In this document: positions 1-4,406 of the stretch, piece by piece | Layout of the letters: each line of letters opens with the position of its first letter | Numbering within the stretch: the first letter of the stretch is position 1 | From: a virus | Lineage: Duplodnaviria; Heunggongvirae; Uroviricota; Caudoviricetes | Length of the DNA stretch: 4,406 nt | Strand: one strand, 5' to 3' | Virus record (IMG/VR): IMGVR_UViG_2703718784_000009 | Location: 1-4,406 of that record | Made by a program: the position numbers and the translations under genes | The notes under the pieces: generated by a model | Database searches by the model: none | Seen by the model: the letters and a program-made list of their open reading frames with translations, nothing else | What the model was told of the DNA's origin: nothing

Positions 1-174
1 TGAGGATGAAATAATCCCGTTCAGCGGCGTCTGCCAGTCTGGGGCCGGTTGCATTATCCACGCCGGAGGTGGTGGGGGCTTCACGCACGGAGCCTGGACA
101 GGTGGCGTTGATCCGCAGGCGCTTACGACCAGCGGCAACGTCAGCGCGAAGAGTTTCATTTTCAGCTCTCGCAT
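1..174 (-). CDS. Rz1: Rz1 o-spanin (outer-membrane lipoprotein) embedded in the +1 frame of Rz; 3' end truncated by the window edge
   Basis: ATG at 174..172 (second in-frame ATG at 159..157), entirely inside Rz in a different frame. Translation [58 protein letters not shown]: signal peptide with lipobox (VSAC) followed by a proline-rich mature region, the hallmark of Rz1. Confidence 0.85.
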
Positions 175-394
175 CAGCTAATTCCCTCGAGTATTTTGCA
201 TCGAGCGCAGCAACATCGCGCTGGCGCACCTGCATATCAGTAATGGTTGCGTTTGCCAGCTCCAGCTCTCTGGCTTTTTTATCTCGCTGCGCTTTGTAGG
301 TGATGGCGTTATCGCGGTAATGATTCAGCCCCAGACTAAGCGCACCACAGGCCACCAGCAGGACAATAATCACCACACACAGAACACGGTTCAT
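1..394 (-). CDS. Rz: Rz i-spanin (inner-membrane spanin subunit); 3' end truncated by the window edge
   Basis: ATG at 394..392 preceded by a GAGGGGG Shine-Dalgarno; frame open to position 1 (131 codons in window). Translation [99 protein letters not shown]...[13 protein letters not shown]: N-terminal TM helix then coiled-coil region, near-colinear with phage lambda Rz as I recall it. Not listed in the ORF track because no stop lies in the window. Confidence 0.9.
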
Positions 395-401
395 ATCCCC
401 C

Positions 402-533
402 TCACCCCAGCATCCCCGACGAAGACAACATCATCCAGCCCAGGGAAAGAAAAATAGCAACCAGCATTAGTGAAAATGAAATGCCGACGATTACACAGAG
501 GATCTTCGCCAGCGTTATGAGCTTGTCTGACAT
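402..533 (-). CDS. hypothetical 43-aa hydrophobic peptide ([43 protein letters not shown])
   Basis: ATG at 533..531 with AGAGGA Shine-Dalgarno 6 nt upstream; stop TGA at 404..402, 7 nt before the Rz start. Almost entirely hydrophobic (one TM helix). Below the 60-aa cutoff of the ORF track. Same frame as the upstream ORF 546..728, separated only by a TGA. Confidence 0.3.
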
Positions 534-545
534 GCTTAATCCTCT

Positions 546-728
546 TCACGATTTCAACGCAATGACCAGTTTTGCCAGTCCATACAGCATCGGAGACACA
601 GCAATACCGACCGCCACCCACTTAATAGCAAAAGCCAGCGCTCTGCTGATGTCATCAGTTACAGGCGCTTTCAGTTCAAGGCCGTTTTTCATAGTCAACC
701 TCAACAGAATTCGTTTATACTTTTCCAT
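546..728 (-). CDS. hypothetical 60-aa small membrane protein, C-terminal TM helix (MEKYKRILLRLTMKNGLELKAPVTDDISRALAFAIKWVAVGIAVSPMLYGLAKLVIALKS)
   Basis: First ATG at 728..726 preceded by AAGGGAGAAC (purine-rich SD). The ORF-track start at 761 is a GTG lying inside the terminator hairpin, so the ATG is preferred. Stop TGA 548..546. Basic N-terminus, hydrophobic C-terminal segment. Confidence 0.45.
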   Translation of the reverse strand: MEKYKRILLRLTMKNGLELKAPVTDDISRALAFAIKWVAVGIAVSPMLYGLAKLVIALKS

Positions 729-761
729 GTTCTCCCTTGCCTTATCCAAGGTCAGAAACAC

Positions 762-800
762 AAAACCCCGCTTGCAGCCAACAAACGGGGTTTTTACTTT
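762..800. terminator. intrinsic (Rho-independent) terminator hairpin, bidirectional, stronger in the plus direction
   Basis: AAAACCCCG (762..770) pairs with CGGGGTTTT (786..794); loop has further internal pairing; followed on the plus strand by TTTTTACTTTTATT. On the minus strand the same hairpin is followed by UUUUGUGUUU. Lies between the endolysin stop (885) and the small ORF start (728). Confidence 0.6.
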
Positions 801-884
801 TATTCACTTAGTTTTTGTCAGTTCGCAGGATTTCGTGTTATCCGTCCGTGTGAGCAAACCGCATTTTTCAGCAAAATATTCTGC

Positions 885-1418
885 TTATCTGTCAATTCCC
901 CAGCACGCCAGCGCACTCTCCTGGTCGCGACGGGATACCTGACCGTAACAGTTGTTTGAGCGAATACGGCAGTCTCTGCCACCGTCCTTAATCCACCAGC
1001 GAATCGCTTCGCATGCTCCCCTGCGATCACCTGCATTAATTCGTCTGTAAAACGTCGACGGGAAACACTTACCGGGACCAATGTTGTACGGACAGAATGA
1101 CGCGATCCCCGCTTTCTGGGGTTCGGTCAGCGGCACTCTGATGTTTTTCTCCACCCACGCCAGCGCCTTATCACGCTCAATGGCGTTAACCTGGTCGCAT
1201 TTTTCCTTCGACAACTTCATGCCCGGAACGACAGGTTTGCCATCCACCATGATGGCACCACGGCAGATGGTCCAGATACCTGCACCATCACGGTATGCCG
1301 TGGTGTGGTTACCTTCCTTTTCATCCAGAAACTGGTCGAGAATTTCAGGCGCAGAAGCCCCTGCGGCAATCAGCGCCAGAACGGCAGCCGACAGGCCGTA
1401 TTTGATTTTTGCGTTCAT
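885..1418 (-). CDS. R: endolysin, T4-lysozyme-like muramidase (GH24) with N-terminal signal-arrest-release (SAR) domain
   Basis: 177-aa ORF, ATG 1418..1416, stop TAA 887..885. N-terminal weakly hydrophobic Gly/Ala-rich segment (YGLSAAVLALIAAGASA) typical of SAR endolysins. Catalytic E-x8-D-x5-T spacing present (E..GNHTTAYR D GAGIW T), as in T4 lysozyme and phage 21 R. No strong SD upstream of the ATG. Confidence 0.92.
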   Translation of the reverse strand: MNAKIKYGLSAAVLALIAAGASAPEILDQFLDEKEGNHTTAYRDGAGIWTICRGAIMVDGKPVVPGMKLSKEKCDQVNAIERDKALAWVEKNIRVPLTEPQKAGIASFCPYNIGPGKCFPSTFYRRINAGDRRGACEAIRWWIKDGGRDCRIRSNNCYGQVSRRDQESALACWGIDR

Positions 1419-1529
1419 GGATATTTATCAGGATTTATCGGTTCCGAATCCCTGGATATGTTAAGCCTTCACCCCGCCAGTGGTGGGCACTGGCCAGGGT
1501 ATGTCAATCTGATAAACACAGAGGTGACT

Positions 1530-1790
1530 ATGGATTATCCAAATCTACCAAAACAAACTTTTGCTGATTTAATCGCACTCAGGCAAGCAGTCGTAGCTCT
1601 AATCAACGTGTTGCCGGATGAGGAAAAGGAATTAGTTAAAGCAATTCTTAACAGAACTGCCGCCGATTTTTCATCATTCCCACTGACAGATGACCTTGCG
1701 GACCTTCCTGAATTAATTGCAGCGTCCGCCATTAAGCTTACTGAAGAGATTTACTCTCCTCAAAAGCCTTCACAAAATTCCTGCGAGTAA
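1530..1790 (+). CDS. hypothetical 86-aa acidic protein, convergent to the late operon (MDYPNLPKQTFADLIALRQAVVALINVLPDEEKELVKAILNRTAADFSSFPLTDDLADLPELIAASAIKLTEEIYSPQKPSQNSCE)
   Basis: ATG 1530..1532 preceded by GAGGTG (1521..1526); stop TAA 1788..1790; a strong intrinsic terminator follows about 20 nt downstream (1809..1845). Helix-like amphipathic composition; AT-rich codons (about 42% GC by hand count). The longer track ORF 1305..1790 starts at a GTG with no SD. The 3' end overlaps gene 1738..2373 by 53 nt on the opposite strand. Confidence 0.55.
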   Translation: MDYPNLPKQTFADLIALRQAVVALINVLPDEEKELVKAILNRTAADFSSFPLTDDLADLPELIAASAIKLTEEIYSPQKPSQNSCE

Positions 1791-2373
1791 CTTCAATGCA
1801 ATAATCGTAAAACGCCGCGAACTGCTCATCGCGGCGTTTTTCTTCAGGCCGCTGAAGATGCTCTTTCAACCGTGAAGCGCAGCTTAGATGCGCCGCGCGA
1901 TCAAGAATAGTTTCTTTCATTTCATCTGCTGCAAGCACCTCATTTTTTGTTGGGGTGCTTTTTTTCAATTCAGCGATATAGCACTCCAGTTTTTCAATGC
2001 GTGATTCAATATCATCGTTTTCTGACCGCAATGCCGTCGGTGGCGTCTTCAGAGAACCAGTAATTATTCCCGGTAGTTTTCCTCTGTAGGTTATCAACAC
2101 ATCCTGCGCCTCTAAAATTATGGGGCGCTTTTCCGGCGACTGCTCATCCCCTTCACATAAAGCGGCAGCAATATCCATGAAAAACTGCTTCGCCTGTTTT
2201 TTCGCCTCAGCTTCGTAAAATTCCAGCGTGGCACCTTCAGTACGGTCAAGACTAATCGCCACATTTGGCAACAACAGTGACGGATACCCACCAATTTCCA
2301 GTGCCACAGTAACAGTAATCTTATCCGGGTAATTATTTATCCCTTTAACAACCAGTTCGTATTTTTTCTTCAT
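1738..2373 (-). CDS. hypothetical 211-aa soluble protein inserted between holin and endolysin; function unknown
   Basis: ATG 2373..2371 lies 4 nt after the holin stop (TAA 2380..2378) with GGGGAGAG SD inside the holin 3' end, i.e. tight translational coupling. Stop TAA 1740..1738. No TM segment; the C-terminal half looks helical/coiled-coil (DDIESRIEKLECYIAELKK...). I do not recognise the family. Confidence 0.8.
   Translation of the reverse strand: MKKKYELVVKGINNYPDKITVTVALEIGGYPSLLLPNVAISLDRTEGATLEFYEAEAKKQAKQFFMDIAAALCEGDEQSPEKRPIILEAQDVLITYRGKLPGIITGSLKTPPTALRSENDDIESRIEKLECYIAELKKSTPTKNEVLAADEMKETILDRAAHLSCASRLKEHLQRPEEKRRDEQFAAFYDYCIEVTRRNFVKAFEESKSLQ
1809..1845 (+). terminator. intrinsic terminator for the plus-strand ORF 1530..1790, embedded in the coding sequence of the minus-strand gene 1738..2373
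   Basis: AAAACGCCGCGA (1809..1820) pairs perfectly with TCGCGGCGTTTT (1829..1840), 8-nt loop, then TTTTTCTTC. Weaker in the minus direction (followed there by UUUUACG). Confidence 0.6.
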
Positions 2374-2377
2374 CGCT

Positions 2378-2593
2378 TTACTCTCCCCGCGCCGCCTTAC
2401 GCCGGTCCTCTCTGATTTTGAAATACAGGTTAGTCAGATATGTCAGCAGCCCAAACAGCAGACTCCCCAGCACGCCTATTGCCGCCCACTGAGACGGGGA
2501 AACCCTGTCCAGCAACTGCAGGAACCAGTAGCCCGTTCCCACCGCTGACGTGGTGTATGACACACCTGTTGTGATTTTTTCCATCTGGTACAT
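2378..2593 (-). CDS. S: class II holin (pinholin), phage 21 S-like, with dual-start motif
   Basis: 71-aa [74 protein letters not shown]: two TM segments plus charged C-terminal tail; closely resembles S21 / E. coli EssD as I recall them. Two in-frame ATGs (2593 and 2584). GGGAG SD upstream. Confidence 0.9.
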
Positions 2594-2668
2594 ACCCCGT
2601 CTCCCGTACTCGGAAGCTCACAACAACAAAAGGGCCACCAGCTCTTTACTGATGACCCTGACTCACCG

Positions 2669-2959
2669 TTACAGCATTGTGCCCGATTCTGGCTGTGTGT
2701 CTGTCATATCCGTCACCGGTGGCTCCGGCTGAATATCACCATTTTCCGTGGTGACATCTTCCGCCTGTGGTTCCGGAAGCAGTTCCGGGGATGGTTCCGG
2801 CTGTGCACCAAGCAATTCATCCAGAATGGCATCCACTTCTGCATCAAGACGCGCCTCAAGGTTCTGCCGAAGTTGCTGTTTCAGTGCGCTCCGGACTTCT
2901 TCAGAGCGCAGGACTTCCTTCACTGCCTCAGCAGTGACCAGCGATTTTATTTCTGACAT
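2669..2959 (-). CDS. hypothetical 96-aa acidic protein with helical N-terminal half and Pro/Glu-rich C-terminal tail
   Basis: First ATG at 2959..2957 (the track ORF extends to a GTG at 3133 but overlaps the neighbouring ORF). Stop TAA 2671..2669. Protein-like sequence MSEIKSLVTAEAVKEVLRSEEVRSALKQQLRQNLEARLDAEVDAILDELLGAQPEPSPELLPEPQ..., whereas the opposite-strand ORF 2748..2975 is serine-rich low complexity. Weak SD (GAGAAAA). Confidence 0.55.
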   Translation of the reverse strand: MSEIKSLVTAEAVKEVLRSEEVRSALKQQLRQNLEARLDAEVDAILDELLGAQPEPSPELLPEPQAEDVTTENGDIQPEPPVTDMTDTQPESGTML

Positions 2960-2996
2960 AGGATTTTCTCGTTGAAAGGTGTTGTCAAGAAAGTGA

Positions 2997-3179
2997 CTAC
3001 GGAATGAGCGGATCTTCGGGTTTGCTTCCGGCTGACTGACTGGCGCTGATTTTCTCTGCGGCCCTTTTATCAATCTGCCTGCGCCAGAAATCGCGCACTG
3101 CCCTGTACCCACCCGAAAGAAGATACATAACACAGACTGCCGTACAGAAGTACAGCATCACCTGATGAACAAATGTCAT
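2997..3179 (-). CDS. hypothetical 60-aa small membrane protein, N-terminal TM helix and basic tail (MTFVHQVMLYFCTAVCVMYLLSGGYRAVRDFWRRQIDKRAAEKISASQSAGSKPEDPLIP)
   Basis: ATG 3179..3177, stop TAG 2999..2997. No SD of its own, but its ATG overlaps the TGA stop of an upstream 14-codon leader ORF (ATGA overlap), which follows another 14-codon ORF that has a perfect GGAGGT SD (see findings). N-terminal hydrophobic helix with positive residues after it. Confidence 0.45.
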   Translation of the reverse strand: MTFVHQVMLYFCTAVCVMYLLSGGYRAVRDFWRRQIDKRAAEKISASQSAGSKPEDPLIP

Positions 3180-3276
3180 AGTTTCTTACCGTTATGGTTG
3201 ACAATGAGAACTGTTTTCATTTAAAAAACCGATATACGAAAGCATCTTTTCTTTACATTCTCCATTGGGATTACCT

Positions 3277-3313
3277 CCGCCAGCTTCCGTTCCTGCCGCT
3301 GGCGGCTTTTTTT
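3277..3313 (+). terminator. intrinsic terminator oriented for plus-strand transcription (antisense to the late operon)
   Basis: CCGCCAGC (3277..3284) pairs with GCTGGCGG (3298..3305), 13-nt loop, followed by C plus TTTTTTT (3307..3313). No U-tract in the minus direction, so it is unidirectional. Confidence 0.55.
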
Positions 3314-3318
3314 GCCGG

Positions 3319-4406
3319 TTATGATGATGCCCGGCTTTCGTTAACTTTGACTGTGACCGTATCAAGCAGTACCGGATACGTCGCTTTTGCCCCCGTGATA
3401 TCTGTCAGCGTCAGCGTATCTGCTGTAAAGTCATCATTTGTCCACATCACAAGGTCAAACGCCGTCTGCTCTGTACCATCAATCACCGGAACGACTCTTT
3501 CGCTGTTATTTCCCGCAAAGCGGAAAACAACCGTATGCCAGTTATGGTCAAACGCACCAAATGTACCCAGTTGTGCATTCGACGTGCCCTTGTGGTGCAT
3601 AAGATTCAGATTTGATGCATCCGTCTGAAGGAAGAATGATGCCAGCATACTGTTTGCTGCCGCGCCTGACGCCCACTGCGACACCGGCCAGTAGAGACCA
3701 AAGACAAACTGTCCGTTCACCAGTTCGCTTCCATCCGGAATTTTGAACCGTACGGCAATTTCACCCCCCTTGCTGAGAAGATTTTTTGCCTCCTCCACTG
3801 CAACAGTACGGAACATTTTCCAGGACATCAGTTTACCGGGCTGTTTTTCCAGTCGCAGCGCTTTCCGTCCACCGTCATCAGTCACAGTGCCTTTGCCGCC
3901 GGAAGCACCCCACTGCTGCTCTGTCAATGCACCATTTCCACTGTTCGCATCATATTCAGCCACCGTCCTGGTACTGCTCACGGCCTCATCATGATCAGTA
4001 CCAGCAACACCGCCATCCTGCGGTTTCTCAACATCCGGTGTCCCCGGACTGACAGGAGTTGTACCACCCGACTGCGGTGCGCTCTGCCCGGTAAGGAACG
4101 ATAATGTCCGCCCGGCGTACTGCAAAATGGCACCTGCCAGGCGGTCTGAAACAAGGCCTCTTCGCGCCCATGAACTGAAGTGCGTTTTACGATCGGCTGA
4201 CGTCCAGTTACTGGCAGTGCGTGACGCAGCGCCATAGTATCCCGCCGGGATAATGTCCCGATCTTCTGACGGCTCGTTTGTCGGCACATTCACACCATGC
4301 TCATCCGTCATCAACGGCACAAAGTGAATATTCTGCGCAGCTTTGCCTTTATACCCACCGTAAACCGCCTCATACGGCGCTGCATACCTTTCCTTCCAGT
4401 AGTACG
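3319..4406 (-). CDS. large accessory ORF of unknown function, C-terminal 362 codons only (5' end beyond the right window edge)
   Basis: Stop TAA 3321..3319; frame stays open to position 4406 (the track start at 4320 is a GTG, and the upstream codons ...YYWKERYAAPYEAVYGGYKGKAAQNIHFVPL are stop-free and protein-like). Contains a Gly/Ser/Thr/Pro-rich linker followed by a beta-rich C-terminal domain (FGLYWPVSQW...WHTVVFRFAGNNSERVVPVIDG...), possibly jelly-roll/lectin-like. It sits upstream of the holin in the operon; the antiterminator Q is not in the window. Confidence 0.85.
   Translation of the reverse strand, partial: YYWKERYAAPYEAVYGGYKGKAAQNIHFVPLMTDEHGVNVPTNEPSEDRDIIPAGYYGAASRTASNWTSADRKTHFSSWARRGLVSDRLAGAILQYAGRTLSFLTGQSAPQSGGTTPVSPGTPDVEKPQDGGVAGTDHDEAVSSTRTVAEYDANSGNGALTEQQWGASGGKGTVTDDGGRKALRLEKQPGKLMSWKMFRTVAVEEAKNLLSKGGEIAVRFKIPDGSELVNGQFVFGLYWPVSQWASGAAANSMLASFFLQTDASNLNLMHHKGTSNAQLGTFGAFDHNWHTVVFRFAGNNSERVVPVIDGTEQTAFDLVMWTNDDFTADTLTLTDITGAKATYPVLLDTVTVKVNESRASS

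Follow-up and report, generated by a model that had tools for sequence, protein, structure and literature searches.

Between the endolysin gene R and the spanin gene Rz of a lysis cassette from a member of the Caudoviricetes (IMG/VR virus record IMGVR_UViG_2703718784_000009, positions 1 to 4,406; these 4,406 nucleotides (nt) are hereafter called the window) lie two small hydrophobic open reading frames (ORFs), A and B. Our preferred reading, to which we assign a probability of about 0.7, is that A and B are two separate genes of a prophage late lysis operon, each encoding a micro-protein that crosses the inner membrane once and has a likely accessory role in lysis. The original prediction, made from the sequence of the window, had offered three explanations for the pair: two independent membrane peptides, a longer protein with two transmembrane (TM) segments split by a nonsense mutation, or a product of stop-codon readthrough. 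Comparison with homologous loci favours the first of these, since both ORFs possess a conserved Shine-Dalgarno sequence (SD) and start codon of their own, purifying selection acts on the frame of each, and each is found without the other. On this evidence both are real, conserved and uncharacterised genes, the case for A being very strong and that for B adequate.

Both ORFs lie on the minus strand. R ends at position 885 and Rz starts at 394, a distance of 490 nt that agrees with the gap of about 490 bp, holding two small hydrophobic ORFs, first described. The long form of A has 60 amino acids (aa; MEKYKRILLRLTMKNGLELKAPVTDDISRALAFAIKWVAVGIAVSPMLYGLAKLVIALKS; 546..728, ATG at 728, stop TGA at 548..546), with the C-terminal TM helix and the SD (AAGGGAGAAC at 738..729) that had been proposed for it. 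B has 43 aa (402..533, ATG at 533, stop TGA at 404..402) and consists of a single TM helix and an uncharged 14-aa C-terminal tail, preceded as expected by an AGAGGA SD 6 nt before the ATG. The window contains 54 ORFs of at least 25 aa, and ORFs of the size of A and B are common by chance; these two are distinguished from chance ORFs by conservation and by selection at the codon level among their homologues, not by the presence of the ORFs as such. Across 26 distinct nucleotide haplotypes the ratio of nonsynonymous to synonymous divergence (pN/pS) is 0.21 in the frame of A as against 0.89 and 4.3 in the other frames, and the variable sites fall 19/4/38 by codon position. Over codons 13-60 the ratio is 0.19, and 19 positions are invariant across Escherichia and Salmonella. 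For B (26 haplotypes from 102 loci) pN/pS is 0.42 as against 0.81 and 1.50 in the other frames, and the substitutions are conservative (I/L/V, K/R, S/T). Equal rates of synonymous and nonsynonymous change, which had been named in advance as the sign of a locus with no ORF conservation, were seen in neither gene. A 76-aa ORF in an alternative frame overlapping B (621..391) was considered and rejected on the same figures, 0.42 in the frame of B and 0.81 and 1.50 outside it; ORFs such as P0096, found in rearranged loci, represent this alternative frame fused to the C-terminus of A.

The two ORFs share a reading frame in the window. They are separated, as originally noted, by one TGA and 12 nt (AGAGGATTAAGC, 545..534; junction 534..548, minus strand) with no other stop between them, and the spacer holds the AGAGGA SD of B. 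Could A and B then be halves of one two-TM protein, joined by programmed readthrough of the TGA or separated by a recent nonsense mutation? A shared frame has a prior chance of 1 in 3, and comparison of about 190 related loci reveals that the relation is not conserved. The stop of A is present in 83 of 83 loci, and the spacer to the ATG of B measures 14 nt in 53 of them, 12 nt in 23 and 13 nt in 2. Counted as distinct junction haplotypes, B is in frame with A in 6 of 26 and out of frame in 20, and all 20 have another in-frame stop inside the spacer. A GH108-type cassette (L098) has a 17-nt spacer and an A ending in TAA, and a Citrobacter junction, also out of frame, has one of 22 nt. The stop codon of A itself depends on the lineage (TGA, TAA or TAG). 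B keeps its own SD and ATG everywhere, in a region that differs in length by 2 nt between lineages (AGAGGA here, AGGGAGGA elsewhere), and it is this 2-nt difference that places the ORFs in frame in the window. In the search for a continuous ORF or a conserved TGA across homologous loci, both expected of a split or recoded gene, the TGA proved variable and a single fused A-B ORF was recovered (108 aa, TGA to GGA), on one 979-bp contig, as against more than 400 member sequences in the cluster of A alone. A and B also occur singly and in reverse order. Apart from that contig and the in-frame arrangement of the window, the evidence runs against a split gene and against readthrough, both of which we regard as extremely improbable; judged by its homologues, the reading frame that A and B share across a single TGA arose by chance in this lineage.

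The original prediction also took R to be followed directly by Rz in cassettes of this kind. This does not hold for the present Rz lineage. A census was made of the 80 IMG/VR loci whose Rz is closest to the present one (92-98% identical). R and Rz could both be placed in 74 of them, and none of these 74 has a gap shorter than 296 nt. The gap is occupied by members of at least three families of TM micro-ORF, namely A/C, B and D/E. Besides A (48 or 60 aa) and B (43 aa) these comprise C (28 aa, MSAELIRAMAFAIRIVAIAVLVWAIRWW; phrog_4493, E=4e-6), a paralogue of A in truncated form (shuffle z=5.8); D (31 aa, phrog_6632); and the D-like E (about 32 aa, MAEKLSTWKYILIWLVFVIMASGYFIGQIRWW), which has the C-terminal end ...IRWW and whose leader and N-terminal sequence resemble those of D by eye. 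The commonest arrangement is R-[E]-Rz (35 loci, with no match to A-D and with E present in the inspected examples), followed by R-A-B-Rz (16), R-D/E-Rz (13), R-D-B-A'-C-Rz (8), R-A-C-Rz (4) and R-ant-B-Rz (2); two loci have too little upstream sequence to be classified, and the counts include four loci with short upstream sequence. Every class of gap contains a matched micro-ORF or, in inspected examples, an E ORF, and the last micro-ORF stops 1-11 nt before the ATG of Rz and provides its SD.

Beyond the census the same units recur in other combinations. In Salmonella prophages the order is R-A-Rz, B being absent, and this holds behind holins of three families and endolysins of two types. Among other E. 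coli prophages one finds R-B-Rz and R-D-B-A'-C-Rz, the latter with B upstream of a 38-aa remnant of A reduced to the TM segment (A'), and arrays reach up to four members. The A-B pair is kept across Escherichia and Citrobacter in a cassette with two holins and a GH108 endolysin. In the Shiga toxin (Stx) phages VT1-Sakai, VT2phi_272 and Stx1_132418 the order is S-R-ant-B-Rz, with the ATG of B overlapping the stop of ant (TGATG). In most Stx1- and Stx2-converting phages the stretch from ant to Rz holds a B homologue (MGWLMISDKLI... or MEWWLMISDKLI...), which many of these records, including that of VT1-Sakai (L104, 2186-2340), leave unannotated. Distant members of the A family are found elsewhere in late operons, often in tandem: after tail-fibre genes (L091, L187), between terminase and portal genes (L186) and after a capsid gene (L188). 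The last of these, a metagenomic phage contig, has a hairpin after the capsid gene and then five small ORFs (2400-3700), four of them single-helix; two resemble A, one (59 aa) is holin-like, one has 51 aa, and the fifth, of 32 aa and ending ...VRWW, resembles D/E. This fifth ORF stops 3 nt before an endolysin of the signal-anchor-release (SAR) type, so the micro-ORFs can precede an endolysin and not just Rz.

Homologues of A were found in Salmonella, E. marmotae and Citrobacter, and those of B in Citrobacter, Cronobacter, E. albertii and Shigella. B falls into 239 protein clusters and is present in 276 phage records, often unannotated. An exhaustive profile search with A returned 19 representative clusters among 1.84 billion proteins, none of them tied to a characterised family, and the A family is thus narrow; a search of genome contigs with the A profile confirmed nothing. 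The PHROG families that match (phrog_1115/4493/3246 for A, with E=1.4e-42 for phrog_1115; phrog_4906 for B, E=3.5e-22) are without functional annotation. Neither protein has a Pfam or NCBIfam match, a Pfam search of 16 family members was likewise negative, and no functional name for either protein appeared in any source searched. The cluster representative P0274 (542 aa), grouped with B, is an unrelated sequence and a clustering artefact.

For A, a second start absent from the original description is probably the principal one. Met13 (ATG at 692..690) has its own SD, GAGG at 702..699, and opens a short form of 48 aa (546..692) that corresponds to the conserved core of the family. The upstream SD (729..738), which serves the first ATG, is predicted to be sequestered in a local hairpin: in the fold of the sense RNA 5' untranslated region (-12.7 kcal/mol) the U-tail of the terminator described below and the bases that follow cover both this SD and the first AUG, leaving the GAGG of Met13 free. 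Because of this folding the 48-aa form is probably the main product of A, with a more basic 60-aa form, bearing the N-terminal extension MEKYKRILLRLT, as an option. Every lineage keeps Met13 and its SD, even L091 with its different nucleotides (GGAGG), many homologues have been called as 48-aa proteins, and L094 has the 38-aa version comprising only the TM segment. The basic pattern of the extension is also kept in distant members (MKLYRKFFRMRLSM, MTVYRKTFRLRISM). In Salmonella (L084-L090) a 24-nt insertion about 60-40 nt upstream of the Met13 of the A homologue, itself containing a small internal hairpin (AGGGA...TCCCT), makes the first ATG the start of an 8-codon mini-ORF, MCREVCSL, whose TGA overlaps a GTG that restores the frame of A (GTGA). 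The mini-ORF looks like a leader-peptide coupling device. A ends in one TM helix with the short flank ALKS, and the charge distribution predicts an N-in orientation for it and for B; both would probably insert N-in and leave almost nothing in the periplasm.

The 3' end of B is closely joined to Rz. Its stop lies 7 nt from the ATG of Rz and is followed immediately by the SD of Rz (TGAGGGGGATATG, 392..404, minus strand), indicating that translation of the two genes is coupled. Comparably tight junctions to Rz are made by C (TGATATG), by E (TGAAATG) and by the A gene of Salmonella. A recurrent variant of B with a 1-nt frameshift (L005, L006 and six more loci; B region at about 2696-2827) retains the TM helix, has a replaced C-terminus and terminates on the ATGA of the Rz start; it may be either a copy in decay or an alternative form that functions. 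An origin of B from the N-terminal TM domain (TMD) of Rz is unsupported: the similarity (z=2.9, p=0.0125) loses significance over 36 tests.

How are these genes expressed? On the coding strand of positions 1..1600 no sigma70-like promoter was found, and the terminator scan returned one terminator-like hairpin, just upstream of A. This symmetric hairpin (756..795), between R and A, is flanked by an A-run and a T-run and is terminator-like in both directions (-21.6 kcal/mol sense, -14.2 kcal/mol antisense). Among 12 variants its outer stem and the flanking A/T runs are invariant, and two inner pairs show compensatory changes. It stands upstream of the A-family ORFs in all contexts examined, whether the preceding gene is R, ant, or a tail-fibre, capsid or terminase gene. 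No conserved sense promoter-like site lies within 250 nt either side of A, and a candidate upstream of it (TTGTCA-16-AAAAAT) was rejected, being confined to Salmonella and absent in E. coli. Late transcription in lambdoid phages is carried out by Q-modified, terminator-resistant RNA polymerase starting from pR'. Given the lack of a sense promoter and the strong terminator just upstream, A, B and Rz are probably transcribed, by analogy, only by such a polymerase and together with S and R. Late polymerase running through the hairpin would thus reach A, B and Rz, and ribosomes finishing B would be handed over to Rz. Judging from context, the most likely role of the products would be that of non-essential accessory factors present in the inner membrane at lysis, where they might modulate the energisation of the membrane, the triggering of the holin, or the way in which membrane-anchored lysis proteins are inserted or released; rapid swapping of modules could then adjust lysis timing.

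A further element may bear on A. A promoter-like site (TAGTCA-18 nt-TATACT; 692..721, plus strand) lies antisense to codons 3-12 of A and faces the hairpin. Scored with a sigma70 weight matrix over 250 nt either side of the start and on both strands, it ranks first or second of 928 positions in 7 of 7 lineages, a rank reached by 2% of 93 control ORF starts; B starts rank 8th to 145th, and no comparable antisense site was found for B. The site also scores in Salmonella, in the GH108 cassette (TATAAT), in L091 (TTGGCC-16-TATACT) and in L187 (TGGTCA-18-TATACT), and in L186 and L188 both hexamers are built from different bases. Synonymous divergence (pS) is 0.08 in codons 1-12 of A as against 0.29 in the rest of the gene; reduced synonymous change is common at gene starts. 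A transcript from this site would be a cis-antisense RNA of about 75 nt (about 728..805, plus strand), complementary to the upstream SD and first codons of A and ending at the hairpin and T-run. Its predicted fold has -20.2 kcal/mol (z=-2.4). An Rfam scan gave only sub-threshold matches, among them a rimP leader (E=0.19) at these coordinates, and the sequences of the small RNAs (sRNAs) AgvB, AsxR and EcOnc03 are absent from the window. We put the existence of a short cis-antisense RNA at roughly even odds; the placement of the promoter-like element facing the hairpin suggests that such an RNA may additionally restrain A.

These features raise the possibility, unlikely in our estimation, that A, its hairpin and the antisense promoter form a self-contained, mobile module resembling type I toxin-antitoxin systems, with A as a membrane-damaging peptide and the RNA of about 75 nt, made constitutively, blocking its translation or destabilising its mRNA. 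Late transcription would then have to overwhelm this RNA before any toxicity appeared; alternatively, the module would serve as an addiction or abortive-infection element. B would be an unrelated neighbour. The ranking of the antisense site in every lineage despite differing hexamers fits such a module, as do the suppression of synonymous change exactly over the site, the toxin-like size of A with its single TM segment, the private upstream hairpin of every A-family ORF whatever gene precedes it, and the occurrence of the cassette at several unrelated late-operon sites. A promoter for a toxin mRNA was not found, however, nor was any Rfam family match or any Pfam match to a toxin (Hok, Ldr, Ibs); the promoter-like hexamers fall on conserved codons, so the signal is perhaps partly a by-product of protein conservation, and low synonymous change near a start codon with an internal ribosome-binding site is expected regardless. 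Decidedly unlikely is the view that A and B are lysogenic-conversion cargo (morons), for example superinfection-exclusion peptides or modulators of host membrane proteins, and that the lysis cassette is a tolerated site of insertion. It would account for the unmistakable cargo that the R-Rz gap also accepts (ant or Rha genes, insertion sequence elements), for the A-family ORFs after tail-fibre genes, a classic moron site, and for a rapid combinatorial turnover among near-identical Rz genes that recalls arms-race loci. It sits poorly with a layout of upstream terminator and no sense promoter, which reverses the promoter-gene-terminator order of morons, with the tight translational coupling to Rz, and with at least one micro-ORF in all 74 measured relatives (E by inspected examples), unlike optional cargo.

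The same coupling gives rise to another reading, which we consider very unlikely, namely that the micro-ORFs act mainly in cis: the hairpin would break the lambda-type coupling of R to Rz, and a short ORF would load ribosomes and open the Rz start, its peptide being a by-product that is hydrophobic merely for harmlessness or quick degradation. The last codons of the final micro-ORF do supply the SD of Rz at the short distance given above (...IRWW-TGA-ATG; GGGGTGAGGGGGATATG), any of three unrelated families may fill the slot before Rz, and B tolerates a frameshifted C-terminus ending on the ATGA of Rz. The residue-specific conservation of A is strong, however, with its 19 invariant positions and low pN/pS over codons 13-60; A is also found without Rz downstream, and arrays of up to four micro-ORFs exceed the needs of coupling. 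A bolder elaboration, which we hold only tentatively and think rather unlikely, would describe the A unit as a hitherto undescribed mobile late-operon cassette composed of a bidirectional terminator hairpin, a dual-start single-TM gene and an antisense sRNA promoter within its first 12 codons. An equally speculative extension would make it an antisense-gated, type I toxin-like peptide that serves as an interchangeable lysis-timing or depolarising device and that, with B and D/E, belongs to an overlooked class of micro-protein gene, near-universal in Stx-type and P21-type lysis cassettes.

Several observations weigh against our preferred reading of A and B as accessory lysis genes. No homology of either protein to a characterised holin, antiholin, releasin or toxin was found, and the functional assignment consequently rests on context. 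The distribution of A-family ORFs outside lysis cassettes does not require a lysis-specific role. About 10 of 80 loci have a frameshifted B, which must therefore be dispensable in at least some prophages, and its pN/pS of 0.42 would fit selection that maintains little beyond hydrophobicity. At the antisense site, the conserved codons of Tyr4 and Ser/Thr12-Met13 bias the sequence toward promoter-like hexamers. Finally, published ribosome-profiling and transcription start site supplements for enterohaemorrhagic E. coli, searched by sequence, gave no usable entry.

Several known systems invite comparison with A and B. The closest analogue in position and concept is LysA of phage P2, which reportedly is a non-essential membrane protein that affects lysis timing and is encoded in the order Y-K-lysA-lysB-lysC. 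Both arrangements have a co-transcribed membrane-protein gene between endolysin and spanins, but LysA is larger and has several TM segments, whereas the A/B set consists of single helices of 28-60 aa in shuffled arrays. A relationship is not indicated (the PHROG families are of unknown function and Pfam and NCBIfam give no match), and the two are set apart by description, not by sequence. The releasin gp25 of phage Mu (DUF2730) has 99 aa, an N-out/C-in topology and an acidic cytoplasmic domain of 73 aa (PMC9239132). It resembles A and B as a small inner-membrane protein with a single TMD that helps lysis and is no holin, its gene standing a few genes away from those for a SAR endolysin and spanins. 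A and B differ in lacking a DUF2730 match, in their opposite predicted topology and in having practically no soluble domain, and A also occurs beside GH19 and GH108 endolysins. Type I toxin-antitoxin systems (hok/mok/sok, ibs/sib, ldr/rdl, zor/orz) share with A the hydrophobic single-TM peptide of at most 60 aa, the cassette-like distribution and the predicted short cis-antisense RNA over the initiation region of an upstream start or leader ORF (the 8-codon leader with GTGA in Salmonella); A differs in lacking a toxin promoter or family match and in lying within a Q-dependent late operon. P22 has a short antisense RNA, sar, that covers the ribosome-binding site of ant, a gene harmful when expressed at the wrong time, and this would be a mechanistic analogue of the predicted RNA, with a different target and genomic context.

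The two conserved in-frame starts of A, the longer form adding basic N-terminal residues, recall the dual-start holin/antiholin genes of lambda (S107/S105) and phage 21 (S71/S68). Unlike these, A is built with a single TMD and lacks a charged tail at its C-terminus, and the cassette has its own S21-type holin. Compared with class II holins profile to profile (hhalign), the A family scored a probability of 0.3%, and a relationship of A to TMD2 of the pinholin, for which a pairwise score was obtained (z=3.2, p=0.01 uncorrected), was rejected on that result. The highly charged hydrophilic C-terminus of holins is seen in neither protein, A ending in ALKS and B in its uncharged tail. Nor do they look like spanins: in the window PF03245 is matched only by the gene at 394..1, and A and B lack both a periplasmic domain and a lipobox.

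All genes of the cassette are on the minus strand, in the order DUF6645/esterase-like ORF, DUF1378, DUF826, S21-type class II holin (2593..2378, Pfam PF04971), DUF1327/YdfR-like ORF, R, A, B and Rz. R (885..1418, 177 aa) matches Pfam Phage_lysozyme (E=3e-24), and its N-terminus (MNAKIKYGLSAAVLALIAAGAS) reads as a hydrophobic, SAR-like stretch. The i-spanin Rz is represented by its 5' part (1..394; Pfam Phage_lysis PF03245, E=1e-37), and the o-spanin lipoprotein Rz1, recognised by translation and its lipobox, lies in the +1 frame inside it (1..174); both are truncated at the window edge. The DUF1327/YdfR-family ORF (211 aa, 1738-2373, minus strand) stands between holin and endolysin, so that insertions in the cassette flank R on both sides, with A-B following it. 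The A-B module is 100% identical to that of a prophage of E. coli STEC2018-607, in which RefSeq lists both ORFs as hypothetical proteins and the DUF1327/YdfR equivalent as an incomplete pseudogene, and at least 80% of the module is found in 1037 of 5426 complete E. coli genomes. On the opposite strand a conserved 86-aa ORF (phrog_2572; 1530-1790, plus strand) partially overlaps the 3' end of the DUF1327/YdfR ORF. A second small conserved hairpin (CGGACGGATAACACGAAATCC in E. coli, GGCGGATAACACAAAATCCGCC in Salmonella), common to cassettes with different endolysins, lies in the stretch of roughly 90 nt that separates the stop of R from the terminator (796-884, minus strand). A hairpin GCCGCCAGC...GCTGGCGGC followed by TTTTTTT (3225-3320, plus strand) converges on the end of the esterase-like ORF at 3319 (minus strand). 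The published position of the prophage sRNAs AgvB, AsxR and PasA/C/D, between the sialate esterase and the holin, is this one and not the R-Rz gap. The hairpin at 3225-3320 has no Rfam match and an unexceptional fold (z=-1.5), and the window has no match to the AgvB/AsxR/EcOnc03 consensus.

Related cassettes show further variation at their edges. Where there are two holins and a GH108 endolysin, A and B are followed by a conserved 60-aa lipoprotein (MKRKHWTHRMPRTAAKWALVAILVPFFLVGC..., phrog_7528; L096 2376-2558, L098 2804-2986, L190 and L192 2640-2822) that is not Rz/Rz1, and no i-spanin is evident; the lipoprotein might be a different type of factor that disrupts the outer membrane. Cronobacter prophages (L189-L191, 1-860) carry genes for an AB5 toxin like Enterotoxin_a/LT-IIB directly upstream of their holin genes, where stx stands in Stx phages.

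The sequences of A and B are already in databases as hypothetical proteins. In the literature searched, neither the peptide sequences nor ORFs described as lying "between R and Rz" were found. The constant but shuffled TM micro-ORFs upstream of Rz in Stx- and P21-type cassettes, and the conserved antisense promoter-like site on A, thus seem not to have been described there. Even if the micro-proteins have no phenotype, the value for annotation remains, the locus containing two independent small genes and no recoding. Shiga toxin leaves the cell at lysis, and in Stx-converting prophages the timing of lysis sets both phage yield and toxin release. If the micro-proteins do tune lysis, most Stx1 and Stx2 phages hold an unstudied lysis gene, and the locus would be a natural case of combinatorial shuffling of TM micro-proteins, possibly with antisense-RNA control within a late operon.

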